Shown here: in pieces, positions 3,388 through 49,534 of the stretch
How the letters are laid out: each line of letters opens with the position of its first letter
Numbering within the stretch: the first letter of the stretch is position 1
Assembly (NCBI GenBank): GCA_018645005.1
Contig: JABGPJ010000066.1
Coordinates: 41,808-105,807, forward strand
Reading direction: 5' to 3'
DNA from: Deltaproteobacteria bacterium
GTDB taxonomy: Bacteria; SAR324; XYD2-FULL-50-16
Length of the DNA stretch: 64,000 nt
Made by a program: the position numbers and the translations under genes
Notes under the pieces: model-generated
What the model saw: the letters and a program-made list of their open reading frames with translations, nothing else
The model's database searches: none
What the model was told of the DNA's origin: nothing

Positions 3388-4158
3388 ATGATTCATCAAA
3401 CCGCAATCATTGATCCGGAAGCGAAGCTGCACAGCAGTGTCGAAGTGGGTGCTTATTCTGTTATTGGCCCTGGTGTTGAAATTGGAGCAGATTGCCGAAT
3501 TGCGCATCACGTTGTCATTGAAGGACCGACCAAGATAGGAGCCGGGTCCAGGATTTTCCCCTTCGCATCATTGGGCCTTGAGCCCCAGGATAAGAAGTTT
3601 CAAGGGGAACAGTCCTATCTTGAAATCGGAAGCCATAATACGATTCGAGAGTATGTGACCATCAATCGTGGGACTGAGGTTGGCGGCGGAACTACAAAAC
3701 TTGGAGATCATGGCTGGATCATGGCGTATTGCCATATCGCCCATGACTGCATTGTTGGTGATCATGTCACCATGTCTAATGGAGCCACCCTGGGTGGTCA
3801 TGTGGTTGTAAAGGATTATGCGAATATCGGCGGACTATCAGGCGTACACCAATTTTGCCGGATAGGAGAGTATGCGATTGTGGGCGGGCAGAGCATGATT
3901 ACACAGGATGTTGTGCCGTTTGCCATCGCAGCAGGAAATCGAGCCAAACTGGCCGGCGTTAACTATATTGGTTTGGATCGCAGGGGATTCACATCAGAGG
4001 AGATCGATATCATTAACCAGGCCTTCAAAATATTTTTTAAAAATGGCCTGACAAGAGATGTCGCTTTGCTAAAATTGAAAGAGGAATTTCCGGAATCAGC
4101 CCATATTGGAATGTTCGTGGATTTTATTCAATCTTCAGAACGGGGTGTTTGCCGCTGA
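3388..4158 (+). CDS. lpxA: Acyl-ACP:UDP-N-acetylglucosamine O-acyltransferase LpxA
   Basis: Left-handed beta-helix hexapeptide repeats, MIHQTAIIDPEAKL start and catalytic HIAHDC region. Global similarity to E. coli LpxA. Confidence 0.9.
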   Translation: MIHQTAIIDPEAKLHSSVEVGAYSVIGPGVEIGADCRIAHHVVIEGPTKIGAGSRIFPFASLGLEPQDKKFQGEQSYLEIGSHNTIREYVTINRGTEVGGGTTKLGDHGWIMAYCHIAHDCIVGDHVTMSNGATLGGHVVVKDYANIGGLSGVHQFCRIGEYAIVGGQSMITQDVVPFAIAAGNRAKLAGVNYIGLDRRGFTSEEIDIINQAFKIFFKNGLTRDVALLKLKEEFPESAHIGMFVDFIQSSERGVCR

Positions 4159-4345
4159 GTAAGTAAAACACATGGATGCCATTTCAAATTAGAGGATTAT
4201 TCAAAATTACCTCTTGTTCCCAAAACGCTTATAGACGGAAACTCTCATTGAGCGATAACACCCTCTCACTGTTGCCCACATCCGGGATTCAGTGGTGAAA
4301 CACGACCGACAGTTTGACAAAAAAAATACTGACCTGAATTACTAA

Positions 4346-8178: not shown

Positions 8179-9324
8179 ATGAAAAAAGAGATTACGTTAG
8201 CAGGTAAAAATTATATCTTGATTGGAACTGCCCATATTTCCAAAGACAGTATTGAAGAAGTATCAGAGGTTATTAGCGATATTCGGCCGGATGCCGTTTG
8301 TGTAGAGTTGTGTGCAGGCCGGTATGAGTCTATCCGGAATGCAGACCATTGGAAAAGTATGGATATTGTCAAAGTGGTCAAAGAAGGAAAAGCCCCGATG
8401 TTGATGATGAATCTGATTCTATCGGCGTTTCAAAAGAAAATGGGTGATAAACTGGGAGTCAAACCCGGGGCAGAAATGGTCAAGGCAATTCAGATTGCAG
8501 AAGAGACCGGCAGTGAAATTGTGCTGGCTGATCGGGATATCACGATCACATTTAAAAGGGCCTGGGGCATTCTATCATTCTGGGAAAAGATCAAACTCTT
8601 TGGTCAGATTTTTGTCAGTGTCTTTGAAACGCCGGATATTTCAGAAGATGAAGTTGAAAGTCTGAAAGAAGGTGATATGTTGACGGAAGCGATTGATATG
8701 ATGGCAAAGGAACTGCCTGGGATAAAATCTGTCCTCATTGATGAAAGAGACCGGTTTCAGGCAGCGAAGATCCTGGAAGCAAAAGGAGAATCAATTGTTG
8801 CGGTTGTTGGCGCCGGACATATTCCAGGAATTATTCATCACATGGAAAATCCAGGGGACATTTCCGAATTGGAAACCACGCCTCCACCCGGGAAAACGGG
8901 GAAAATTCTGAAGTGGGGAATTCCTTTGGGAATACTTGCAATTATTGCCTATGGCTTTTTTGGAATGAATACGGATGTCAGCCTGGAAATGCTAAAGCGC
9001 TGGGTCCTGGCAAACGGGATTCTGTCAGCGTTAGGAGCGTTATTGGCCGGCGGCCATCTCTTGACAGTTTTGGTGGCCTTTGTCGCCGCGCCGATCACCT
9101 CGCTCAATCCAACCATTGCCGCGGGATGGGTCTCAGGTTTGACGGAAGCCTGGATTCGAAAACCAAAAGTTGAAGACTTCGAAAACCTGCCGGTGGACAT
9201 TACCTCAGTTCGCGGATTTCGGAAAAATGAAATCACCAGAATTTTACTGGTGGTCGTTTTGAGCAATCTGGGCAGCACAATCGGGACTTTTATCGGGATC
9301 CCCTTGATTACGTCTTTACTGTGA
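8179..9324 (+). CDS. TraB/GumN-family protein with C-terminal transmembrane segments
   Basis: ITLAGKNYILIGTAHISKDS...AVCVELC motif of the TraB/PrgY/GumN family. Hydrophobic C-terminal third. Confidence 0.65.
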   Translation: MKKEITLAGKNYILIGTAHISKDSIEEVSEVISDIRPDAVCVELCAGRYESIRNADHWKSMDIVKVVKEGKAPMLMMNLILSAFQKKMGDKLGVKPGAEMVKAIQIAEETGSEIVLADRDITITFKRAWGILSFWEKIKLFGQIFVSVFETPDISEDEVESLKEGDMLTEAIDMMAKELPGIKSVLIDERDRFQAAKILEAKGESIVAVVGAGHIPGIIHHMENPGDISELETTPPPGKTGKILKWGIPLGILAIIAYGFFGMNTDVSLEMLKRWVLANGILSALGALLAGGHLLTVLVAFVAAPITSLNPTIAAGWVSGLTEAWIRKPKVEDFENLPVDITSVRGFRKNEITRILLVVVLSNLGSTIGTFIGIPLITSLL

Positions 9325-9403
9325 TGTGTATCCGGACCCGTCGGGAATTTTTGTAAACCGGTTTTATAAAGACATACCGTGCTTATTGGATATATAGAAG
9401 GTA

Positions 9404-9510
9404 TTAAGGGTTGGCTCAAGAATTACTTGGCATTCTGCCTGCAAAATGTCCTGTCTTTACGAGACTTTTACGGACAGATTATGCCAAGTTATTTTTGTAC
9501 GATCCCTAAG
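9404..9510. repeat. 107-bp intergenic repeat, copy 1 of 3
   Basis: Near-identical 107-bp sequences at 9404-9510, 21122-21228 and 24735-24841, all in the same orientation. They run from TTAAGGG to CCCTAAG, with an internal imperfect inverted repeat AATTACTTGGCAT...ATGCCAAGTTATT. Confidence 0.85.
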
Positions 9511-9535
9511 TGCAAAAAAATGACAGAAATGGGTT

Positions 9536-9773
9536 CAGCAATGTCCGGTTAGGTTTTTGCAGTTCAAAAGCTGAATGATAAAACCCGTCTCTACACATAA
9601 GGATTTAAAGATTTTCTAAGTTTGCTTCACGAAAAACCGCCAAACTCGCTCGTGCTTTGCTCAAACATGGCTCATTTTCGCTACGCTAAACTAAGAAAAT
9701 CTAATAAATCCTTATCAGCGCGATCCAGGCTTCATCATTCAGCTTTTTGCAAAAACCTAACCGGACATTGCTG
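9536..9773. mobile_element. MITE-like non-autonomous element, long form, with 9-bp target-site duplication
   Basis: Terminal inverted repeats CAGCAATGTCCGGTTAGGTTTTTGCA (9536-9561) and their reverse complement (9748-9773). Flanked by direct repeats AAATGGGTT at 9527-9535 and 9774-9782. The internal region of about 185 bp is non-coding. Confidence 0.7.
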
Positions 9774-9840
9774 AAATGGGTTAGATTGAAGATGACAGTA
9801 CGATATTTTAAAAACAACAAACCTGTTTATTCTCTCAGGA

Positions 9841-10209
9841 GTGACGATGGATAGTGAAAAGACGATCTTAAACAATTTTCTACCGCAACTGAAAAGTTTT
9901 GTTAAATCGGAAACGGTTTTTGGAGAACCATACAACATCGGCGAAGTGACGATGATCCCGGTTAATTCTGTGAAAGTCGGATTCGGTTTTGGTTCGGGGG
10001 ATACAAAGACAATTGACAGTTCCGCTGGTGGCGGTGGTGTTTTGCTGACACCGGTCGCATTTATTGTTGTTAAGGGCGAAGACGTTTCCATTCACAATTT
10101 AAGCGCCGGTACGATTGAAAATGTACTGGAAAAAGTTCCTGAAGCTCTGGATAAGTTTATTTCTATATTTCAAAAATTGCAGAAAAAGAATAAAAAGACG
10201 GACGAATGA
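9841..10209 (+). CDS. GerW/YtfJ-family protein (sporulation protein YtfJ-like)
   Basis: VTMIPVNSVKVGFGFGSGD...SSAGGGGVLLTPVAFIVVKGEDVSIHNL matches the remembered YtfJ/GerW core (VSKVGFGFxxGG...GGGxxxTPxAFLxV). Its stop overlaps the next start (ATGA). Confidence 0.55.
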   Translation: MTMDSEKTILNNFLPQLKSFVKSETVFGEPYNIGEVTMIPVNSVKVGFGFGSGDTKTIDSSAGGGGVLLTPVAFIVVKGEDVSIHNLSAGTIENVLEKVPEALDKFISIFQKLQKKNKKTDE

Positions 10210-10817
10210 TTTTTTTATACGGTTTTCTCTTGGCAATCGGGGTTCTGCTGATTGTTATTCTGAGCATCCCTGTTAAAGTTCGTTTGGAATCGAATCTCGT
10301 ATTTCTGGTTCAGTGGGTTTTTCTGACTGTCAGGATTATCGTTGAGCAAAATAACGTCCGAACAGAACTGCAACTATTCAACAAAACAATAGAGAGCCGG
10401 AAAAAAGCCAAACAGAAACCGGTCACTAAACAAAAAAAGGCCAAAAAGAAAAAACCGAAAAAAAAGGTTCCATTCTCATTTTTAAAAGATACCCTGCAGG
10501 ATGCTGCTATTAAAAAAGTTATATACCAGTCTCTTCATTTAGTCCTGCGCTGTCTTTTCGCAATTAAGATCCGATTTTTGAAATGGAATATCGGTTTAGC
10601 AGACTACTACTGGCAGGGAATTATCTATGGTGTTGTCAGCGGATTACCCAATACCAAACGATGGCAAATCCACGGAAATTTTGATGAGGTCAACGATTTT
10701 CTACTGATTATACAAATATCGATCTGGCGAGTTCTATCTGCAATCGCCATTTTTCTATTCTTCTTTCCTTATTTCAGGACATTACGAATTTACATGCGGT
10801 TCCGAGCGGCAACTTGA
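10206..10817 (+). CDS. Small membrane protein with a lysine-rich linker (possibly DUF2953/YtfI-like)
   Basis: N-terminal transmembrane helix (FLYGFLLAIGVLLIVILSI), a KKAKQKPVTKQKKAKKKKPKKK stretch and a hydrophobic C-terminus. In Bacillus, ytfJ is paired with ytfI (DUF2953). The assignment is tentative. Confidence 0.4.
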   Translation: MIFLYGFLLAIGVLLIVILSIPVKVRLESNLVFLVQWVFLTVRIIVEQNNVRTELQLFNKTIESRKKAKQKPVTKQKKAKKKKPKKKVPFSFLKDTLQDAAIKKVIYQSLHLVLRCLFAIKIRFLKWNIGLADYYWQGIIYGVVSGLPNTKRWQIHGNFDEVNDFLLIIQISIWRVLSAIAIFLFFFPYFRTLRIYMRFRAAT

Positions 10818-13800
10818 ATCGGGAAACAGTGAAAAATCCGAAAAGAATCAGCTTTAAAAGCAAAGGACTTGAACTGATACAGGTCTGCGGGCCTTACGCA
10901 GAACTCTATTTCGACTGGAAGCAGATACCGCCTCTTGACCTGAGCAAAAGTTATTACCTGGTCGAAATCTCACCTGACTCGTTGATTCTGCCCCTTGAAT
11001 ATGCCAGACCCAACTCGGACGGGCCGCTTCATTTCTGCCTGAAAACGGGGGTCGAATATCAGCTGAGGCTCCTTGCGGTCCCACTCCCCGCATTTTCGAT
11101 TGAATCTGATCTCGATCCACCTCCTCAATTGGAATTCATTCCCCAACATGAAAATTTGCATAAACTGATCTGGGGAAATGTCGATGTGGAGGCACTAAGT
11201 CAGTCTTGCAACAGCCATCATGTTGAAATTTACCAGGAGGGAATCTTATCCCAGCAATGGGCTCTACAACCGCTTATCTCTTGTGAACTGGTTGGAAGAC
11301 CGGCGGTCATTGAAATTCGCTGCGGCTCTGGTGAGCGGTTGTTACTGATTAACACCAATCTGCAGCAAATGACCTGTGCCGGATCCCTTCCCTTTACCCT
11401 CAAGAAGCAACCGGTTCGACTGAGTCTTTCAACTGCTATCCATCCGGTTCCGGGTTGGCGTGTCAGGGTGGATTTGCCTGGGTCTTTTCAGATGCGGAAA
11501 ATATGGCAGGAATCATTTCTAACTGAGTTTAGCACGTCAGACCCGGCTCATATTATTGGCTGCTTCAGATTTTATGAAAACGGAAAACAGGTTCTCGACA
11601 TCAGGCAGTGGGGATTTTCGACACATATTCAAAACCATCTGATTGACCAGATCCAATTACAGGAGTGGAAGCTCAAAAAGAAAAAGCGGGTTCATCATCT
11701 GAAACTTCAACTTCAGGTCACTTCGGCCCATCGAGAGCTCTATAAATTTGTCCTGCTCGAAAAACAGCTTGCAGGAAATATAAATGTCGAAACGGTTGGG
11801 TTCTCCGAAGATGAGATTGAATCTGCTGAACAGAATTTGTTTAAAAACCAGCGGCATGTCGTCTGGGAGCAAGCCTTTTTTGAGCTGGTACTTTGGTTCA
11901 AGGTGGATGGTCATGACTGGCAGGAATTTCAAAGGGATATCGCCCATTCTCTCCGCTGGGACTATGTCCCCTCAGAATCAGCAACTGAATGCTTTTGCGA
12001 GTGGGTACTCTTCGATCTGAACCAGCCGGATCGATTGGTGACGGTGCTATCTTCAGGTCTGGAGAAACGAATACAATGGCCTGACCGGGTCTATCTGAGA
12101 CCGTTCAATACAGAACGACTGTTTGCCTGTTGGGACCTGGAAAAACGCAACATTGAAAACAGGATCCGGTCAGACTGGGGCGTCGTTCTTTCCCAAGTTG
12201 GATTTTACCTTAAAGTGCATGAGGAGCATCTTGGTACGAGAATCCGGCGTGCAGACCTGGATTGTCACTTGATTGATGTTTTCTCTGCTCAAAAAAATCT
12301 CTATTTCGATGTTGAACCCAATAAGTGTTTTTCGGTTGAGATCGTCGCGCGTTTTGAACAGCAAGAGATTTCACTGACACCGGTATCCACATCTGTCGTT
12401 ACCCCCAGAAAACCGGATCAGTCATCTCTCAGCTACCCCCACTACAGCAAATCAGAAAGCCAGGGGTATCATTGCACCCAGCGGCAAGTCCGTCATCTGC
12501 AGGGAACAGATGCTCAAAACAGAGCCAACGTTATGCTGCACCTGCATATGCACTCCCCAAACCTCTATCGGGCTGATCCTTTTCGGGAGAGCTTTCTGAG
12601 AGACGGCACCTGGCCGATTGTCACCAACGAAGGGGCTGAAGTTCATAATCCGCCAGGGGAATGGGTTTTGAGGAACTGTCTAGATTCTTGGCTACCGATT
12701 CTGAGAGTTTTGCGTAGTCTGGCTGCGGAATCGGTCGATTATCAGCTCAGTCTCGATATATCACCTCCCGTGGCCTATATGATAAGTAGTCCCTGGTTCA
12801 AGGACTACATGTCCCGTTATTTATTGCGGATGAAAGCATATGTGAGCGGACAGATTGCCTTGATGAAATTCCGCAACGATTCACCTGATTTTATTTATGC
12901 AGCGGAGCGCTGTCTGATCGATTTGGATGCGATTGAATCTTTTTACATTTCTGATCTGGATAAAAACATCATCGGTGCTTTCCGTGAACTTGAACTGCAA
13001 GGGTTCGTTGAAATATCAACCTGTACAGCAACGCATGGAATGCCTGCCGAGCTGGAGAGTCTTCCGGATGCACTTGACAGTCAGATTACACTGGCTGCCA
13101 GAAGCCATCATCGAATTTTTGGAGATCGGCCCAAAGGGATCTGGCTTGCTGAAAACTCTTTTTTCCCTGGCGTTGAACAGTTGCTTTCCAGAGAAGCGTT
13201 GGGATTTTTCTTTGTTGAAGCAGAAGCTATTTTATGTGGGTCGCACAAACTCTCCGAAGAGGAGTTCAGTCCGGTTATCCTCCCTCTGAATCAGGTAGTC
13301 GCATTTGGCCGCAGCCGTTTGGGCAGAGCCCAGGTCTGGGATGCTGACATTGGCTATGCCGGTCATCCGGATTTTCGAGAATATCATTTTCGGCACTTAG
13401 GGTTGCCGGTCAAGCGGATCACTTCGAAAACAACGGATGACAAACAGCCGTATCACCCGGACCAGGCAGAAAAGACGGCTCGGAAGCTGGCACAGGATTT
13501 TCATCACAAACTGAGTGAGAAAGCCTTCGAATTAAGCAGCCGCAGCTTTAAATCGATTCCCCTGATCAGCTGTACCTATGACGCCGAGCTATTCGGTCAT
13601 CATTGGTGGGAAGGACCTGTTTTTCTGGAAGAGCTTTTAAGAGAGTTTTATCGCAAAGCGGGTGCAATCGGATTGACGACACCATCGCATTATCTCGCAG
13701 GGAATCCCACTCTACCCGAGGTGGTGCCAAATCCATCCACCTGGGGGCATGAAGCGGTGCATGTAAAGTGGACGGATCCGAAAGTTGCCTGGACGTTCAG

Positions 13801-14131
13801 AGAATTAGAAAGAGCGGATCAGATTTTGAAAACCTATTTAGCACTGGGTCAGGAAAACAGGCTGACAGATTTTCAAATACGGATTGTTGAGCAGATGGAG
13901 GCGGAATTCATCCGTGCGCAAAGCTCGGATTTGACTTTTGTCATCATGGCCGGAGATTTTGAGGAGGATATGCAGAGAGAAATTTTGAAGTACCTGGACT
14001 ACTTTTATCGTCTCAAATCCCTGATTGACAATAATGTTGAGGACGAACAATTTCTGTTGTTCCGGCAGTACGAAAATAATATGTTTCCTGAAATTGCCGG
14101 ATGCTATGCCATCCGTCTGCAACCCACTTAA
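10814..14131 (+). CDS. 1105-aa fusion protein: uncharacterised N-terminal region of about 560 aa plus a C-terminal GH57 alpha-glucan-active domain
   Basis: The C-terminal half carries GH57 hallmarks: HLHMHSPNLY (like LHAHLPY), GIWLAENSFFPG (nucleophile Glu region) and CTYDAELFGHHWWEG (acid/base Asp region). The TTG start overlaps the upstream stop (TTGA). No recognisable family for residues 1-560. Confidence 0.65.
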   Translation: MNRETVKNPKRISFKSKGLELIQVCGPYAELYFDWKQIPPLDLSKSYYLVEISPDSLILPLEYARPNSDGPLHFCLKTGVEYQLRLLAVPLPAFSIESDLDPPPQLEFIPQHENLHKLIWGNVDVEALSQSCNSHHVEIYQEGILSQQWALQPLISCELVGRPAVIEIRCGSGERLLLINTNLQQMTCAGSLPFTLKKQPVRLSLSTAIHPVPGWRVRVDLPGSFQMRKIWQESFLTEFSTSDPAHIIGCFRFYENGKQVLDIRQWGFSTHIQNHLIDQIQLQEWKLKKKKRVHHLKLQLQVTSAHRELYKFVLLEKQLAGNINVETVGFSEDEIESAEQNLFKNQRHVVWEQAFFELVLWFKVDGHDWQEFQRDIAHSLRWDYVPSESATECFCEWVLFDLNQPDRLVTVLSSGLEKRIQWPDRVYLRPFNTERLFACWDLEKRNIENRIRSDWGVVLSQVGFYLKVHEEHLGTRIRRADLDCHLIDVFSAQKNLYFDVEPNKCFSVEIVARFEQQEISLTPVSTSVVTPRKPDQSSLSYPHYSKSESQGYHCTQRQVRHLQGTDAQNRANVMLHLHMHSPNLYRADPFRESFLRDGTWPIVTNEGAEVHNPPGEWVLRNCLDSWLPILRVLRSLAAESVDYQLSLDISPPVAYMISSPWFKDYMSRYLLRMKAYVSGQIALMKFRNDSPDFIYAAERCLIDLDAIESFYISDLDKNIIGAFRELELQGFVEISTCTATHGMPAELESLPDALDSQITLAARSHHRIFGDRPKGIWLAENSFFPGVEQLLSREALGFFFVEAEAILCGSHKLSEEEFSPVILPLNQVVAFGRSRLGRAQVWDADIGYAGHPDFREYHFRHLGLPVKRITSKTTDDKQPYHPDQAEKTARKLAQDFHHKLSEKAFELSSRSFKSIPLISCTYDAELFGHHWWEGPVFLEELLREFYRKAGAIGLTTPSHYLAGNPTLPEVVPNPSTWGHEAVHVKWTDPKVAWTFRELERADQILKTYLALGQENRLTDFQIRIVEQMEAEFIRAQSSDLTFVIMAGDFEEDMQREILKYLDYFYRLKSLIDNNVEDEQFLLFRQYENNMFPEIAGCYAIRLQPT

Positions 14132-14157
14132 TCCACCTGACATAATCCAGATTTATT

Positions 14158-14210
14158 CAGCAATGTCCGGTTTGGTTTTTGTTTTGCAAAAACCTAACCG
14201 GTCATTGCTG
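14158..14210. mobile_element. MITE-like element, minimal 53-bp form (terminal inverted repeats only), with 9-bp target-site duplication
   Basis: CAGCAATGTCCGGTTTGGTTTTTG-TTT-GCAAAAACCTAACCGGTCATTGCTG, the same termini as the 9536-9773 element. Flanked by direct repeats AGATTTATT at 14149-14157 and 14211-14219. Begins 27 bp after the stop of the GH57 fusion gene. Confidence 0.7.
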
Positions 14211-14289
14211 AGATTTATTCAAAGATAGACCTTAAAAGGAGGCTACAACATCAGTAGTCTTTTACGTACTCAAATAGACAAGGAGTTTC

Positions 14290-21121: not shown

Positions 21122-21228
21122 TTAAGGGTCGGCTCAAAAATTACTTGGCATTCTGTCAGCAAAATGTCTGGTCTTTATGGGACTTTTGCGGACAGTTTAT
21201 GCCAAGTTATTTTTGTACGATCCCTAAG
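21122..21228. repeat. 107-bp intergenic repeat, copy 2 of 3
   Basis: Same element as 9404-9510. Ends 18 bp before the priA start codon. Confidence 0.85.
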
Positions 21229-24734: not shown

Positions 24735-24841
24735 TTAAGGGCTGGCTCGAAAATTACTTGGCATTTTGTCTGCAAAATGTCCAGTCTTTTCAGAACTTTT
24801 GCGGACAGATTATGCCAAGTTATTTTTGTACGATCCCTAAG
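24735..24841. repeat. 107-bp intergenic repeat, copy 3 of 3
   Basis: Same element as 9404-9510 and 21122-21228. Confidence 0.85.
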
Positions 24842-40518: not shown

Positions 40519-40856
40519 AGGGAAATACGTTTTGAGTTTTTACGGTTACCGTCTTGAAATCTTAAAAATAAATTTAGGCCTATTTGCCAGGAGAGATCTC
40601 ACCTAAGAATAAAGCCCGCACCGTCTTTATATTATTCCGATCGCTTTGCAGTCCTCAAAAACAGTGATGTCTGTATTTTTCAAAACTTATATGATCTCAG
40701 ACAATAAATCAATGAATTAAAATTAAATTGACGGAATTCCGGGGCCAAAATAGTAAAAATAAGTTAATTCAGCTATTTACGCAGGGACAATTTTTGGTGA
40801 ATCCCAGCTATGGAATTTTAAATTACAAAGGAATTTTGAATTACCAAATTGTGAGT

Positions 40857-40901
40857 AAACAATTCCGACTCGGATATTTAAACAATTCCGACTCGGATAT
40901 T
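40857..40901. repeat. Tandem 22-bp direct repeat with palindromic core
   Basis: AAACAATTCCGACTCGGATATT twice (40857-40878 and 40880-40901). The core CCGACTCGG is dyad-symmetric. A second tandem pair, GGAATTTTAAATTAC and GGAATTTTGAATTAC, lies at 40812-40844. Confidence 0.8.
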
Positions 40902-41316: not shown

Positions 41317-42204
41317 GTGATCGAAAAACATTCCCAACCTCGGATAAATTGGTTTCCGGGGCATATGGCCAAAGCCTTGAAAGATGTCAGGCAAAAGATA
41401 AGCAAGGTTGATCTGGTACTGGAGGTCAGAGATGCCAGAATACCCCTGGCATCAGGCAATATTTCCCTGGAAAAAGCCTTGAACCAGAAGCCACGGTTGA
41501 TTGTTTTTAATAAGGCGAATTTGGCAGAAAAAGCAAATATCAAGCTATGGCGAAACTGGTTTGCCGAGCGGGATGACCGAATTCTCTTTCTTGATGCCTT
41601 TGATGCGAGATCACTGAAAATGTTATCGAAAATGGCCCGAGCGGTTATGCAACAAAAGTGGCAAAAATTTATTAAGAAAGGAATTCAGCCCCCCCCATTG
41701 CGGATGATGTTGCTGGGAATTCCAAATACCGGGAAATCCACAATCATCAACCGATTGACCAAAAGAAAAGCTGCCGGTACAGGCGACCGTCCTGGTGTGA
41801 CCCGTTCACAAGAGTGGATTGTTTTGGGCAGGGATTTAGAGTTGCTGGATACACCCGGAATAATGCCACCTAGAATTGACACCGAAGAGCAGGGTTTATG
41901 GCTCTGTGCGATTCATGCCATTAAAGATGAAATAGTTGGTAAGGAGAAGGTCGCCTCTTTTGTTGTCAAATATTTGCAGCAGATTGCGTCCCCTGATTTC
42001 ATAAATAAATATAGTTTACAAGATTCTGAAGTCATAGAGAGCGAAGAGCTGATAATGCAAATAGGATCAAAATTGAATTGCAGAAAAAAAGGGGGGGAAA
42101 TCGATTATGCAAAAACCTGTAGCCAGATATTGCATGACTTCAGGTCTGGGCTGCTGGGTGCCTGCAGTTTCGAAAAACCACCTAAGGAAAAAATTATTCC
42201 CTGA
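41317..42204 (+). CDS. rbgA: Ribosome biogenesis GTPase A (YlqF/RbgA)
   Basis: GTG start. INWFPGHMAKA start motif. Circularly permuted GTPase motifs (DARIP...NKADL, GIPNTGKST). Confidence 0.85.
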   Translation: MIEKHSQPRINWFPGHMAKALKDVRQKISKVDLVLEVRDARIPLASGNISLEKALNQKPRLIVFNKANLAEKANIKLWRNWFAERDDRILFLDAFDARSLKMLSKMARAVMQQKWQKFIKKGIQPPPLRMMLLGIPNTGKSTIINRLTKRKAAGTGDRPGVTRSQEWIVLGRDLELLDTPGIMPPRIDTEEQGLWLCAIHAIKDEIVGKEKVASFVVKYLQQIASPDFINKYSLQDSEVIESEELIMQIGSKLNCRKKGGEIDYAKTCSQILHDFRSGLLGACSFEKPPKEKIIP

Positions 42205-42205
42205 T

Positions 42206-42277
42206 TAATGTGCAGTGAATGGGTGGCCTTTCATAAAGCCGTATCTTGAATTAATGTGCAGTGAATCGGTGGCCTTT
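42206..42277. repeat. Two copies of a 27-bp direct repeat
   Basis: TTAATGTGCAGTGAAT(G/C)GGTGGCCTTT at 42206-42232 and 42251-42277. Located in the 176-bp gap upstream of the ykgJ-like gene. Confidence 0.8.
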
Positions 42278-42380
42278 GATGGCGTTCGGGGTCATATTGA
42301 AAAAACGAACACAACAGCGGTGAAAGAGCTGCGTTCATGTTGTTCCGATTATTTAAATCTTAATGTAGATAACATAGAAA

Positions 42381-46119: not shown

Positions 46120-47373
46120 ATGGCAGAACAAAAAGGAAAGATATTAGTAATCGGTGGTGGAATCAGTGGTGTTTCTACAGCACTGGAAGCAGCCGAGGTC
46201 GGTTATGACGTAATTCTGGTTGAAAAAAATCCTTCCCTAGGAGGTCGAGTTTCCAGGTTTTATCAATATTTCCCAAAACTATGCCCTCCCCTTTGCGGAC
46301 TGGAAATCAACTACAAAAGACTGAAGCCGAACCCATATATACAAACACTCACAAACTCAGAAGTCGAGTCGATTTCCGGAGAACCTGGGAAATATCAGGT
46401 TAAAATCACGACAAATCCAACTTTCGTGAATGAGAAATGCGTCATTTGCGATAAATGTACGGAAGTTTGTCCATCGGAAAGAGAAAGTGAGCACAATTAC
46501 GGTTTGGATAAAACCAAAGCGATTTTTATACCGCATAAGATGGCCTATCCAGCTCGATTTACTATCGATAGGGACGCCTGCGATCCGTCATGCTCAAAAT
46601 GTGTTGAAGCATGCGAATACGATGCAATTGATCTGCAGATGCAACCCAAAACAACCGATATCGAAGTGGCAGCTATCGTTTATGCAACTGGATGGAAACC
46701 TTACGATGCCAATAAAATTGACAATCTTGGATTCGGGAAAGTTGAAAATGTGATCAACAACGTGATGATGGAGCGGATCGCTCATGGTCAAGGCCCCACT
46801 CAAGGCCAACTCCTGCGTCCGTCGGATCAGAAAAAAGCGGATTCGATCGCTTTCGTACAGTGTGCCGGGTCCAGGGATGAAAATCACCTGCCCTATTGTT
46901 CCGCTGTTTGCTGCCTGGCCTCATTGAAACAGGCCCGCTACGCAAGACTGGCGAATCCGGATGCAAAAATTTATATTTTCTACATTGATATTCGCTCACC
47001 TGGTAAATACGAAGATTTTGCGACTGAAATTCAAAAGGATGAGAACATCATCATGGTCAAAGGGAAAGTTGCCAAAGTGACCCAGGGCCAGGGCGGGAAT
47101 GTTGTTGTAGAAGCGGAAGATATCCTGAACGGCGGAAAAGTCAGCCTGGAAGTGGATATGGTTGTTTTGGCAACTGGAATGGAGTCCAGCATGAAGGGGG
47201 CAAATTTGCCGGATGTGGTTCAACTGGATGAAAACGGTTTTGTTGCACCAAATTTACAAAATCACGGGATCCTGTCCGCAGGAGTGGCAAAATTCCCAGG
47301 CGATGTTAACAGTTCTATTCAAGATTCAACCGGAGCAGCTTTAAAAGCGATTCAAACTGTAGTGGGGAATTAA
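46120..47373 (+). CDS. qmoA: Quinone-interacting membrane-bound oxidoreductase subunit A (HdrA-like flavoprotein)
   Basis: ILVIGGGISGVSTALEAAEVGYDVILVEK FAD motif and HdrA-like Cys clusters. Directly downstream of aprBA. Confidence 0.9.
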   Translation: MAEQKGKILVIGGGISGVSTALEAAEVGYDVILVEKNPSLGGRVSRFYQYFPKLCPPLCGLEINYKRLKPNPYIQTLTNSEVESISGEPGKYQVKITTNPTFVNEKCVICDKCTEVCPSERESEHNYGLDKTKAIFIPHKMAYPARFTIDRDACDPSCSKCVEACEYDAIDLQMQPKTTDIEVAAIVYATGWKPYDANKIDNLGFGKVENVINNVMMERIAHGQGPTQGQLLRPSDQKKADSIAFVQCAGSRDENHLPYCSAVCCLASLKQARYARLANPDAKIYIFYIDIRSPGKYEDFATEIQKDENIIMVKGKVAKVTQGQGGNVVVEAEDILNGGKVSLEVDMVVLATGMESSMKGANLPDVVQLDENGFVAPNLQNHGILSAGVAKFPGDVNSSIQDSTGAALKAIQTVVGN

Positions 47374-47377
47374 AAAT

Positions 47378-49534
47378 ATGGAAAAAAAGATAGGAGTTTA
47401 TATTTGTTCTGGATGCGATATTGATAAAGCGGTAGAGACAGAAGGACTGGAAAAAGTGGCGGCCAATGAATACAAGGTCCCGGTTTGTAAAACCCATCCT
47501 TTTCTGTGCAGCCAAGAAGGAATTCAGCTTTTAAAAGACGACCAGAAAAACGAAGGTGTTAATTGTTTTGTGATTGCTGCCTGCTCATCCCGATATCATC
47601 AGAACGATTTTGATATGGGCAAGGAATCTATAATAGTCAGAACCCCCATTCGTGAACAGGTTGCCTGGATTCTGGAGCCGCGGGATGCGGAAGGCAAAGT
47701 TAACGAAGATACACAGATGGCCGCGGAAGATTACATACGCATGTACACTTCCAGAGTCCGTTTGACCAATATCCCGGAACCGTATCAGCAGGAAGAAACA
47801 GATAAGAGTCTGATCGTTATCGGCGGAGGGGTTGCCGGGATGACTGCCTCTATCGAAGCGGCTAAAGCCGGGTATAAAATTAACCTGATTGAGAAGTCCA
47901 ACCAACTGGGTGGATTTGCTTTAAATGACAAAAGCATTATTCCGACACAGATGCCTTTTGAAGATCTGATGCCGAATAATGTGAGCGAATTGATTGCTGA
48001 AACAGAAGCTATCAAAAATATCACTGTGCACAAGTCCAGCACAGTTGCATCTATTGCGGGGGAACCCGGTGCGTTTCAAGTAAAACTGGAAAATGCTGCA
48101 GCAACTGAGTTTAAAGCGGGCGCTGTTGTGATGGCTTCTGGAGCAACACCCTATGATGCGAGTAAATTAACAGATCTGGGTATTGCTTTTGACAATGTTG
48201 TCAGCAGCATCGAATTTGAGGAGATGGCAAAATCGGGTGCCTTGAAAAGAGCGGATGGACAGCCGGTGAAAAGTGTGGCTTTTATCCAATGCGCTGGGTC
48301 CAGGGATGAAGACCATCTGCCTTACTGTTCTTCTACCTGCTGCATGACATCCTTGAAACAGGCGGCCTATGTCAGGGAACTGGATAGTGAAGCCAAAGCA
48401 TATATTATATATAAGGACATGCGTACGCCAGGTCAGTATGAGGCTTTCTATCGTAAACAGCAGGACGACCCTGGTGTTTTCATGACGAAGGGAAAGGTTG
48501 TGGCAGTCAATGAACTGTCTGACAAAAAAGTAGGCATTGATGTCGATGAGTCACTATTGGGCGAAAATATTCAGCTGCAGGCTGATCTGGTGGTGCTCGC
48601 TATCGGCCAGGTGCCTTCTACTCTGGAAGAGGGTTCAATCCTGAACCTGCAGTATCGACAGGGACCGGATATGCCGGACTTGAAGTATGGATATCCAGAC
48701 TCCCATTTTGTCTGTTTTCCGTATGAAACTAGAAGAACTGGAATTTATGCTGCAGGAACGGTCCGACAACCAATGGATAATAATTTCGCTGTCAGGGATG
48801 CTACAGGTGCGGCTCTAAAGGCGATACAGGCGGTTGAAATGGCCGATCTCGGTCAACGGATGCACCCCAGATCAGGCGATTTGACTTTTATGTCACCGGA
48901 TCTTTCTCGCTGTACAGACTGTAAGCGATGTACAGAAGAGTGCCCTTTCGGGGCCATTGATGAAAATGAAAAAGGGACCCCTCTGCCAAACTCGGCTCGT
49001 TGTCGAAGTTGTGGTATTTGTATGGGAGCCTGTCCTGAGAGAGTGATCTCATTTGCAGACTATAGTGTTTCGATTCTGTCTGAAATGATCAAAAATATCG
49101 AAATTCCCGATGAAGATGACGAAAAACCAAGAGTGGTTGTTTTCATCTGTGAAAATGATGCGATGCCGGCACTTGAGCAAATGGCCATGGATCGACAAAA
49201 AATCAGTCCGTTTGTTCGGTTTATTCCATTGAGATGTCTGGGTGGTAATAACCTGGTCTTCGTATCGGATGCCCTGTCTGTTGGCGTTGACGGTATGATG
49301 TATATGGGCTGCAAGCATGGTGATGATTATCAGTGCCACTTCATCAAGGGTAGTGAATTGTGTGACGAGCGGCTGGGCAAGGTTCAAGAAACCATCGGTA
49401 GACTCGCGCTGGAATCGGAAAGGATTCAGCAGTTCGAAATCAGCTTGAATGATGCACCAAAGCTGCCTCAAATAATCGCTGATTTTATGGAAGAGCTGGA
49501 AGATTACGGCCCCAATCCGTTTAAGGGTATGTAA
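47378..49534 (+). CDS. qmoB: Quinone-interacting membrane-bound oxidoreductase subunit B (HdrA-like with MvhD-like C-terminus)
   Basis: 718-aa protein. Second FAD motif VIGGGVAGMTASIEAAKAGY. Ferredoxin-type CxxCxxCxxxCP motifs. C-terminal Cys-rich MvhD-like region. Confidence 0.9.
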   Translation: MEKKIGVYICSGCDIDKAVETEGLEKVAANEYKVPVCKTHPFLCSQEGIQLLKDDQKNEGVNCFVIAACSSRYHQNDFDMGKESIIVRTPIREQVAWILEPRDAEGKVNEDTQMAAEDYIRMYTSRVRLTNIPEPYQQEETDKSLIVIGGGVAGMTASIEAAKAGYKINLIEKSNQLGGFALNDKSIIPTQMPFEDLMPNNVSELIAETEAIKNITVHKSSTVASIAGEPGAFQVKLENAAATEFKAGAVVMASGATPYDASKLTDLGIAFDNVVSSIEFEEMAKSGALKRADGQPVKSVAFIQCAGSRDEDHLPYCSSTCCMTSLKQAAYVRELDSEAKAYIIYKDMRTPGQYEAFYRKQQDDPGVFMTKGKVVAVNELSDKKVGIDVDESLLGENIQLQADLVVLAIGQVPSTLEEGSILNLQYRQGPDMPDLKYGYPDSHFVCFPYETRRTGIYAAGTVRQPMDNNFAVRDATGAALKAIQAVEMADLGQRMHPRSGDLTFMSPDLSRCTDCKRCTEECPFGAIDENEKGTPLPNSARCRSCGICMGACPERVISFADYSVSILSEMIKNIEIPDEDDEKPRVVVFICENDAMPALEQMAMDRQKISPFVRFIPLRCLGGNNLVFVSDALSVGVDGMMYMGCKHGDDYQCHFIKGSELCDERLGKVQETIGRLALESERIQQFEISLNDAPKLPQIIADFMEELEDYGPNPFKGM

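Follow-up and report, generated by a model that had tools for sequence, protein, structure and literature searches.

The stretch of DNA analysed here, 64,000 nucleotides in length and hereafter called the window, carries a three-gene block on the + strand (9847–14131) composed of a YtfJ/GerW-like gene (9847–10209, +; Pfam Spore_YtfJ), an unknown gene of 203 aa (10206–10817, +) and a GH57 gene of 1105 aa (10814–14131, +; Pfam Glyco_hydro_57 and BE_C, with DUF4912 under the Pfam cut-off). A short non-coding element without assigned strand lies on either side of this block, namely a 238-bp MITE (copy 1, 9536–9773), which belongs to a family of 238-bp elements, and a 53-bp MITE (copy 2, 14158–14210), and the three genes are the context of these insertions and not part of a mobile unit. 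The distance of 58 bp between the upstream element and the operon given in a preliminary description holds when it is counted from the end of the target-site duplication to a GTG at position 9841, but not for the start chosen by gene callers, an ATG at 9847 (120 aa) which is preceded by a Shine-Dalgarno sequence (AGGAG, 9837–9841) and is separated from the duplication by 64 nt and from copy 1 by 73 nt. On the other side, copy 2 starts 26 nt past the GH57 stop codon (14131), and a MogA-like gene lies downstream of it. The same description had the operon bracketed exactly by the two elements, which is overstated, as the conserved block also includes a TraB/GumN gene upstream of copy 1. The intergenic gap that harbours copy 1 contains in addition a second, unrelated MITE of 99 bp (9408–9506).

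Copy 1 is delimited by terminal inverted repeats of 26 bp each (9536–9561 and 9748–9773), the arms of which are identical at 26/26 positions (CAGCAATGTCCGGTTAGGTTTTTGCA), and folding of the element as DNA predicts a single hairpin that spans its entire length (-66.6 kcal/mol, z = -14.3). Its coding content is restricted to a mechanical 50-aa TTG open reading frame, and a transposase gene is absent. Copy 2 is a termini-only deletion derivative in which 24 nt of the left terminus and 24 nt of the right terminus are joined by TTTTG, its arms matching at 22/24 positions and each deviating at 1 position from the terminus typical of the family. We located the terminus CAGCAATGTCCGGTTWGGTTTTTG at four places of the window (9536+, 9750-, 14158+ and 14187-), and a chance origin was rejected, as 0 matches were obtained in 100 dinucleotide-preserving shuffles. 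Sizes of 238 and 53 bp (well under ~500 bp), the lack of a transposase gene and the presence of terminal inverted repeats on both copies are all features expected of MITEs. Searches for other identities were negative: Rfam returned 0 matches at the gathering score, no tRNA was found, and the terminus gave 0 matches against viral contigs, so that a phage or viral origin was rejected. At relaxed Rfam thresholds, eukaryotic miRNA-precursor, snoRNA, Phe-leader and sok models appeared, all of them far under their cut-offs, and none was therefore accepted as a real family.

Both copies are flanked by exact direct repeats of 9 bp, AAATGGGTT in the case of copy 1 (9527–9535, identical to 9774–9782) and AGATTTATT in the case of copy 2 (14149–14157 and 14211–14219), none of them assigned to a strand. 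Together with the terminal inverted repeats, these duplications bear out the earlier proposal of MITEs carrying the signature of transposition. Extending the comparison to the family, the flanking 9-mers agreed at 9/9 or 8/9 positions in 42/59 unique elements among the matches listed, against ≤5/9 in the control, whereas the flanks of about 17/59 unique elements among these matches agreed poorly; the latter may stem from ancient insertion, from recombination between copies or from chimeric assembly of the metagenomes. The targets are AT-rich and follow the pattern A-N7-T, an A in position 1 and a T in position 9 both occurring at 66% versus a background of 27%. We considered whether the terminal T...A might belong to the inverted repeat, the duplication then being shorter, and rejected this possibility because many exact 9-mers lack the starting A or the ending T, which identifies the A/T bias as a target preference.

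The MITE family to which the 238-bp form belongs is abundant in the marine population of the window (Saanich Inlet, SAR324-like). A scan of metagenomes for the terminus recovered at least 118 loci, and about 165 or more distinct flanks correspond to at least 80 insertion sites, these counts being derived from metagenome contigs and not from one closed genome. About 38 or more distinct full copies of 234–242 bp are 88–97.5% identical to the consensus, and copy 1 itself shows 94.5% identity to the consensus of ~38 distinct copies among the matches listed; the population thus contains multiple dispersed copies, as expected of a MITE. The insertions are mostly intergenic, as indicated by the open frame running over the junction once the element is removed, which has a median of 72 aa compared to 321 aa for randomly chosen positions. 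At least 12 other loci likewise contain two or more elements or termini lying within a few kb. The 53-bp form was found among the matches listed at this locus only, where six assemblies from this population carry it.

As the preliminary description had suggested looking for, a full-length element with the same termini and a transposase gene exists, and it belongs to the IS4 family. Identical 26-bp termini bound two elements found in other genomes, L008 (1317 bp) and L012 (1328 bp, from Desulforhabdus sp. TSK), each with a perfect 9-bp duplication and each encoding a DDE transposase of 387 aa, and it is this sharing of termini with a transposase-encoding partner that is expected of MITEs. The 387-aa proteins score 180–196 bits against the NCBIfam model NF033592 'IS4 family transposase' (cut-off 115) and 63–86 bits against Pfam DDE_Tnp_1, and the stretch YKLRWEVEKFFAWWK of the L012 protein corresponds to the Y-2-R-3-E-6-K (YREK) motif. 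Both elements start with CAGCAATGT, in agreement with CA------T ends. The IS4Sa subgroup is defined by a size of 1150–1750 bp, CA------T ends, presence of YREK and direct repeats of 8–10 bp (De Palmenaer et al. 2008, Table 1, PMC2266710), and L008 and L012 agree with it in all four respects. The partner element thus appears closest to IS4Sa, a placement made by the criteria of that table and not by phylogeny with reference members. In contrast to IS4Sa elements, the window copies are free of transposase and would be substrates only.

Assignment to a named insertion sequence was rejected, as the closest annotated plasmid-borne relatives (e.g. ISRel1, 'IS4 family') are 26–31% identical and close homologues are either unnamed or called 'IS4 family transposase'. 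A sequence search of the PDB gave no relative of the transposase. Past the 26-bp termini, the MITE interior has nothing in common with the sampled insertion sequences. The terminus itself is unchanged across several Desulfobacterota lineages and across transposases that are only 60–66% identical to the L012 protein, which makes it a useful search key for this IS group in mobile-element catalogues. Among the matches listed, the contigs of the window population lack a full-length insertion sequence bounded by these termini, such elements being prone to assemble poorly, and all 8 complete insertion sequences listed with these termini come from other environments or taxa. Likewise, a tblastn search for a resident autonomous copy, using the transposase against 150 loci, detected full or partial copies on non-Saanich Inlet contigs only.

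We compared the locus to that of relatives, three of which (L030, L031 and L032) were aligned over both insertion sites while others (L151, L152 and L154/L155) were inspected for gene order. The order TraB-YtfJ-x-GH57 is kept in seven relatives with GH57 identities of 82–52% (82, 81, 78, 74, 66 and 52%). A GH57 homologue with 52% identity is labelled Candidatus Lambdaproteobacteria at NCBI, and identical proteins bear the label 'Deltaproteobacteria bacterium'. MogA is found directly downstream in 6/7 of these relatives, and MogA-Mrp-TGT follow directly downstream in relatives down to 66% GH57 identity. Allowing ≤6 mismatches, we detected no MITE terminus anywhere in the loci of the seven relatives. 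Both insertion sites are empty in the three aligned relatives: L030 and L031 carry one diverged copy of the AAATGGGTT stretch and lack the element, and at the site of copy 2 the relatives show ...CTGACATAATCYGGATTTG once, again with the element absent. Such empty sites, read from the alignments, point to past mobility of the elements. Among the sampled contigs of the population, no polymorphism was observed at this locus.

Taken together, these results strongly support, with a probability of about 0.9, a model in which both elements are MITEs of one IS4-family IS group that inserted independently beside a resident operon. The different duplication at each copy implies that the copies were inserted separately, and the evidence favours the coincidental intergenic insertion that the preliminary description had listed as its first alternative. 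By analogy with what is established for IS4-family elements, a DDE transposase of 387 aa, presumably supplied in trans in this genome, would bind the 26-bp termini and excise the element, which would then be joined to a target cut with a 9-bp stagger, the repair of which would generate the 9-bp duplication. Two separate arrivals would have placed copy 1 and copy 2 into the gaps on either side of the long-resident YtfJ-x-GH57 group. The interior of copy 2 was probably lost by in-place deletion of the long palindrome, which is likelier than transposition of an already shortened copy because no second 53-bp copy was found among the matches listed.

The alternative that the two copies are the ends of a 4.7-kb composite unit, with the operon moved or movable via the outer termini, draws on the same-family termini of both copies, on the fact that any two outward-facing termini are usable in principle, and on IS4-family precedents: Tn5 and Tn10 are composite transposons built from IS4-family elements. 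The window locus resembles Tn5 and Tn10 in having passenger genes between two elements with IS4-family termini; it differs from them in that its flanks are formed by non-coding MITEs with a separate duplication each, and in that the genes between them were ancestrally present here, the corresponding sites of relatives being empty. The outer flanks are AAATGGGTT versus AGATTTATT and each copy has a complete duplication of its own instead of a single outer duplication shared by the unit, which implies that the unit did not come here whole. Moreover, instead of turning up in a different context, the gene order is kept without the elements over the whole range of relatives, and all GH57 homologues whose contigs were inspected share this context; the arms of copy 2 mismatch at two positions, and the transposase is absent from the population sample among the matches listed. 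As an account of past movement this alternative is largely refuted, and overall we regard it as very improbable. A role of the operon as a mobilisable cassette is likewise not supported, given duplications that differ, syntenic relatives devoid of the termini, no excised allele in the sample and the recurrence of close pairs of elements at other loci. Scarcely more credible is a recombination hotspot, in which homologous recombination between the copies would delete or invert the operon. Non-matching flanks do occur elsewhere in the family (e.g. L018, the L086/L101 locus and L073, whose right flank is that of L034), as expected from recombination between copies, yet mismatched flanks in metagenomes can also be chimeric joins at repeats. 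The two copies have only 2 x 24–26 bp in common, very little sequence for recombination that depends on RecA, and a search for the four flanks in all sampled loci recovered the parental arrangement only, with no hybrid junction. No hybrid, excised or recombinant allele of this locus was present among the sampled contigs, which all display the same arrangement. Since the MITEs landed separately beside a pre-existing operon, the arrangement is an ordinary one and no sign of a mobile cassette.

A further set of alternatives concerns the RNA level. Transcribed copy 2 is predicted by folding to form a 24-pair hairpin (-36.3 kcal/mol, z = -7.5) followed by AGAUUUAUU, and this hairpin could affect the transcript. 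If the hairpins had been exapted, copy 2 might act as a terminator or 3' RNA stabiliser and copy 1 might modulate ytfJ, both being kept because they are useful. The strength of the predicted copy 2 hairpin and the presence of both elements in every sampled population contig are compatible with such roles, and an influence of MITEs on adjacent transcripts is known for Correia and ERIC elements. Universal presence is, however, equally expected if the insertions are neutral and the population is clonal, and the family inserts into intergenic regions in general. The copy 2 hairpin was not flagged by a simple consensus terminator scan, its tail being partly U-rich and not a clean U-run. A small, native-looking hairpin followed by a T-run (GGCTAC-N7-GTAGTC-TTTT) persists ~30 nt past copy 2 in the downstream direction. 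Among the matches listed, the 53-bp form is a one-off, which argues against repeated selection. We therefore consider exaptation unlikely. More doubtful still is the combined scenario in which the two MITEs were co-opted to delimit the YtfJ-x-GH57 transcript at the RNA level, with a hairpin in its 5' leader and a terminating or stabilising element at its 3' end, and in which the at least 80 copies of this free-living population, devoid of a resident transposase, were mobilised by one transiently acquired from co-occurring Desulfobacterota, a group in which the same 26-bp terminus occurs.

The probability that the elements are instead REP/BIME-type palindromes, spread by a RAYT (IS200/IS605-like) and serving as general post-gene terminators, is close to nil. 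Like REP/BIME and ERIC sequences, copy 2 is a short, strongly pairing extragenic palindrome located just past a gene; it is unlike them in its target duplications, in its DDE-transposon termini and in the single occurrence of the short form among the matches listed. REPs are without such 9-bp duplications, and the termini belong to a DDE insertion sequence of the IS4 family, so that these two features together have already refuted this reading. Whether the 53-bp form follows most genes, as a REP-type terminator would, had been raised at the outset; it does not, being confined among the matches listed to a single locus.

IS-derived MITEs of other bacteria include Correia in Neisseria, Nezha in cyanobacteria and RUP in Streptococcus. 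Like these, the window elements (53–238 bp) are small and non-coding and share identical terminal repeats with a transposase-encoding element, and their family shares with them a duplication of fixed length, many mostly intergenic copies and the potential of the whole element to form a hairpin. They differ in having an IS4-family (IS4Sa-like) partner and 9-bp duplications, in an interior unrelated to the sampled partners, and in their host, an uncultured marine SAR324-like lineage. A full-text literature search for MITEs in SAR324 found no paper. The locus leaves the current understanding of MITEs unchanged; for annotation, the appropriate label is two independent MITE insertions, not a transposon or genomic island. 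Beyond this locus, at least two MITE families have expanded in the abundant uncultured SAR324-like lineage of Saanich Inlet. Such families break metagenome assemblies, with contigs ending within the elements, and contigs L028, L029 and L153 from other assemblies terminate within copy 1 in a manner typical of repeats. Contigs carrying the MITE families also turn up in bins labelled as other phyla.

Direct reading of the window sequence confirmed the preliminary description of paired MITE-like elements with 9-bp target-site duplications around the GerW-GH57 operon, which comprises the genes of a YtfJ/GerW-like protein, a 203-aa protein that matches no family, and a GH57 protein of 1105 aa. The upstream element (copy 1, 9536-9773, 238 bp; terminal arms identical at 26/26 positions) lies between the two exact copies of the 9-bp direct repeat AAATGGGTT (9527-9535 and 9774-9782). 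The downstream element (copy 2, 14158-14210, 53 bp), in which TTTTG separates a left from a right terminus of 24 nt each (arms 22/24), lies between the two exact copies of the 9-bp direct repeat AGATTTATT (14149-14157 and 14211-14219). The window (64 kb) contains the terminus motif CAGCAATGTCCGGTTWGGTTTTTG four times, at 9536 and 14158 on the plus strand and at 9750 and 14187 on the minus strand, with none expected from 100 dinucleotide-preserving shuffles. The spacings to the operon first reported vary with the choice of start codon; the one that follows a Shine-Dalgarno sequence is the ATG at 9847. An Rfam search returned no family match for the elements, no tRNA was found in a tRNA search, and the terminus had no match among viral sequences.

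The bracketing had suggested that the operon might be a mobilisable cassette, a proposal that did not hold: the operon is not a cassette. Because each copy has its own duplication, two separate insertion events took place, and since a unit moved as one piece would show only one duplication, placed at the outer ends, the operon did not move in this manner. In loci with GH57 homologues at 82, 81, 78, 74 and 66% identity, the order LpxB-TraB/GumN-YtfJ-x-GH57-MogA-Mrp-GBBH-like-TGT (x, the 203-aa protein) is kept as far as contigs reach; at 52%, TraB-YtfJ-x-GH57 is kept, the upstream genes differ and four extra genes precede MogA. None of these relatives' loci (GH57 82-52%) carries the terminus, even at 6 mismatches, and alignments showed both sites to be empty in relatives in which the operon is present. 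Site 1 reads ...ATACTAAGTGCAAAAAAGAAAT...GGAAATTTTGG...GAAGAT in the related loci L030 and L031, the window having the same frame plus two insertions, and site 2 in aligned relatives reads ...CTGACATAATCYGGATTTG followed by an unrelated spacer, with no element. As every relative has TraB/GumN ahead of YtfJ, copy 1 is located inside a conserved four-gene neighbourhood and not at its edge. Moreover, the filled arrangement is identical in all sampled contigs of the population, strain variant L153 included, and no hybrid or excised allele of the locus was found among them. Finally, at least 12 other loci have two elements or more that lie no further than a few kb apart, and contigs of 18-60 kb contain three or four each; given that close pairs are common elsewhere, a pair 4.4 kb apart is expected by chance.

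Many contigs from marine metagenomes, of Saanich Inlet and similar ones, encode proteins identical to those of the window, and the corresponding genomes are labelled 'Deltaproteobacteria bacterium' at NCBI; these labels and the origin of the 52% GH57 homologue (Candidatus Lambdaproteobacteria) indicate a SAR324-like host. The gene block formed by TraB/GumN, the YtfJ/GerW-like protein, a 203-208-aa protein without family match and a ~1100-aa GH57 protein (8179-14131) is also present in L030, L031, L032, L151, L152 and L154 and holds together at GH57 identities as low as 52%. The lineage is Gram-negative and does not sporulate, and LpxB adjoins the block. The GH57 protein, a giant enzyme encoded beside a 'sporulation' YtfJ protein, carries a branching-enzyme domain at its C-terminus and matches DUF4912 weakly, below the threshold.

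Scanning metagenomes with the terminus identified at least 118 loci, most of them from the same samples as the window's population. Across all fetched loci, at least 242 termini (at most 3 mismatches) and at least ~165 distinct flanks were counted, the latter therefore corresponding to at least 80 insertion sites on metagenome contigs. At least ~38 distinct copies of 234-242 bp are 88-97.5% identical to the 238-bp consensus (94.5% for copy 1). The 9-bp repeats proved consistent across the family, the flanking 9-mers matching at 9/9 or 8/9 in 42 of the 59 unique complete elements among the matches listed, while control outer 9-mers never matched at more than 5/9. Target sites are AT-rich; position 1 is A and position 9 is T in 66% of cases each (vs 27% background). 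Once the element and one duplication are removed, the open frame over the junction has a median length of 72 aa, as compared to 321 aa at random positions, indicating that these insertions are mostly intergenic.

Several members have mismatched flanks (L018, 1265-1476; L086, 1948-2185, the same locus as L101; L073, 5512-5748; L093, 3948-4185), the right flank of L073 being the L034 site and the left flank of L093 the L095 site; these are explained either by copies having recombined or by metagenome assemblers having made chimeric joins. Family pieces 98-99% identical to the consensus also occur at the ends of two short contigs, L019 (5107-5243) and L020 (1-133), binned in genomes from Saanich Inlet that carry the labels Candidatus Peregrinibacteria and Desulfobacula; the repeat-ended contigs may have been mis-binned, or the presence may really be cross-taxon. 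Contigs L028, L029 and L153 all terminate within copy 1, pointing to this element as the cause of the breaks; the elements matter chiefly for correct annotation and as a source of such breaks.

A transposase-bearing copy with the same termini, by which the IS family could be named, was found outside the population. Scanning one genome per species gave 22 loci, mainly in Desulfobacterota metagenome-assembled genomes, two of which hold full-length elements bounded by identical termini: L008 (173-1489, 1317 bp, Pseudomonadota MAG) and L012 (883-2210, 1328 bp, Desulforhabdus sp. TSK), with perfect 9-mer duplications CAACTTTTT and AGGGGTTTC, respectively. Each encodes a 387-aa protein that matches Pfam DDE_Tnp_1 and scores 180-196 bits against NCBIfam NF033592 'IS4 family transposase' (cut-off 115), and the IS4-family-defining Y-2-R-3-E-6-K motif is present in the L012 protein as YKLRWEVEKFFAWWK. 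The IS4Sa subgroup is described as having a length of 1150-1750 bp, ends CA------T, YREK and direct repeats of 8-10 bp (De Palmenaer et al. 2008, Table 1, PMC2266710). The full-length relatives agree in all four respects (ends CAGCAATGT, 1317-1328 bp, YREK, 9-bp repeats), and the partner element, placed by these Table 1 features, would fit an IS4Sa-like assignment.

The transposase group comprises at least 4946 proteins at E <= 1e-40, many matches being ~1.3-kb contigs that consist of the element alone; its nearest annotated plasmid relatives show only 26-31% identity, and no PDB relative was found by sequence. Full-length elements occur in L008, L012, L062, L083, L084, L122 and L130, and at least one terminus keeps its outer 26 bp unchanged in elements whose transposases are just 60-66% identical to the L012 protein; judged by these sequences, conservation is far stronger in the terminus than in the transposase presumed to bind it. 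Other genomes contain MITEs with identical termini and unrelated interiors, and the 26-bp terminus is all that the 238-bp family shares with the full-length elements sampled, its interior having nothing in common with them. No full-length element was seen on contigs of the window's population among the matches listed, an absence to be read in light of the poor assembly of insertion sequences. The 238-bp MITE family is new, though of a known kind; it comes from an uncultured marine lineage and has a putative partner in the IS4Sa-like group. A full-text literature search found no paper mentioning MITEs in this lineage.

Several points were observed directly: the anatomy of a MITE, 9-bp duplications throughout the family, a preferred type of target, autonomous relatives that share the termini, and sites that are empty in relatives. 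For the underlying chemistry, the established IS4-family biology of IS10 and IS50 suggests a model in which a DDE transposase would bind the termini in trans and excise the element, which would then be inserted at a 9-bp staggered cut whose repair would generate the duplication.

The 53-bp form was encountered at this locus only, in six assemblies of one population (among the matches listed), which disposes of the suggestion that it could be a REP-type terminator ubiquitous after genes; its target duplication, DDE-transposon termini and single copy among those matches likewise rule out a REP-type element. Short forms elsewhere, at different sites (48, 62, ~73, 84 and 121-126 bp), are each distinct and look like sporadic internal deletions. 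Copy 2 may have transposed in an already shortened state, a less likely route; in-place loss of the interior from a long palindrome seems likelier, since no second 53-bp copy was found among the matches listed. As RNA, copy 2 is predicted to form a 24-pair hairpin (-36.3 kcal/mol, z = -7.5) 26 nt past the GH57 stop codon. It was not flagged by a simple terminator scan, and a small hairpin of native appearance, with a T-run, still lies ~30 nt downstream; an effect of copy 2 on the transcript is possible.

A second, unrelated MITE-like family, of 99 bp, is present at 9408-9506, 21126-21224 and 24739-24837 (all plus strand), with ends GGG...CCC and imperfect inverted termini. It is flanked by a 3-bp TAA/TTA direct repeat, the two 3-mers being identical in 27 of the 34 unique complete copies that the fetched loci contain, and as RNA would fold into one hairpin (-38 kcal/mol, z = -6.0). 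About 63 distinct copies were found on contigs of the same population among the matches listed, and the copy at 9408 is missing from L030 and L031, which carry a single TAA. The 3-bp TWA duplication may point to an IS5-family or PIF-like partner.

In L045 (3601-3838), a 99-bp element has a 238-bp MITE nested at its extreme end (duplication TCCCTAAGT); in L136 (~3700-3760) a solo terminus adjoins a truncated 99-bp element. In L154 (78% GH57 identity), the two intergenic gaps that contain copy 1 and copy 2 in the window are enlarged to 429 and 265 bp by other sequence (~4150-4250, TraB-YtfJ gap, and 8638-8903), including a ~100-bp element with 16-bp inverted termini GTTACCCAGAAAAGTT...AACTTTTCTGGGTAAC; these intergenic gaps appear to tolerate small insertions repeatedly. 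A ~40-nt stretch, TTTTATAAAGACATA-CGTGC-T-TTGGATATATAGA (9355-9400), is conserved in the TraB-YtfJ gap of L030, L031, L032 and L154, upstream of both MITE insertions; if it were the ytfJ promoter or operator, the transcribed leader would include both MITEs.

The window further contains a 23-nt unit exactly duplicated in tandem (40856-40901), two 31-nt copies 46 nt apart with 94% identity (42204-42280), and an 86-nt repeat (46849-46934 and 48278-48363; 77% identity, 1.4-kb spacing) that possibly belongs to paralogous genes.
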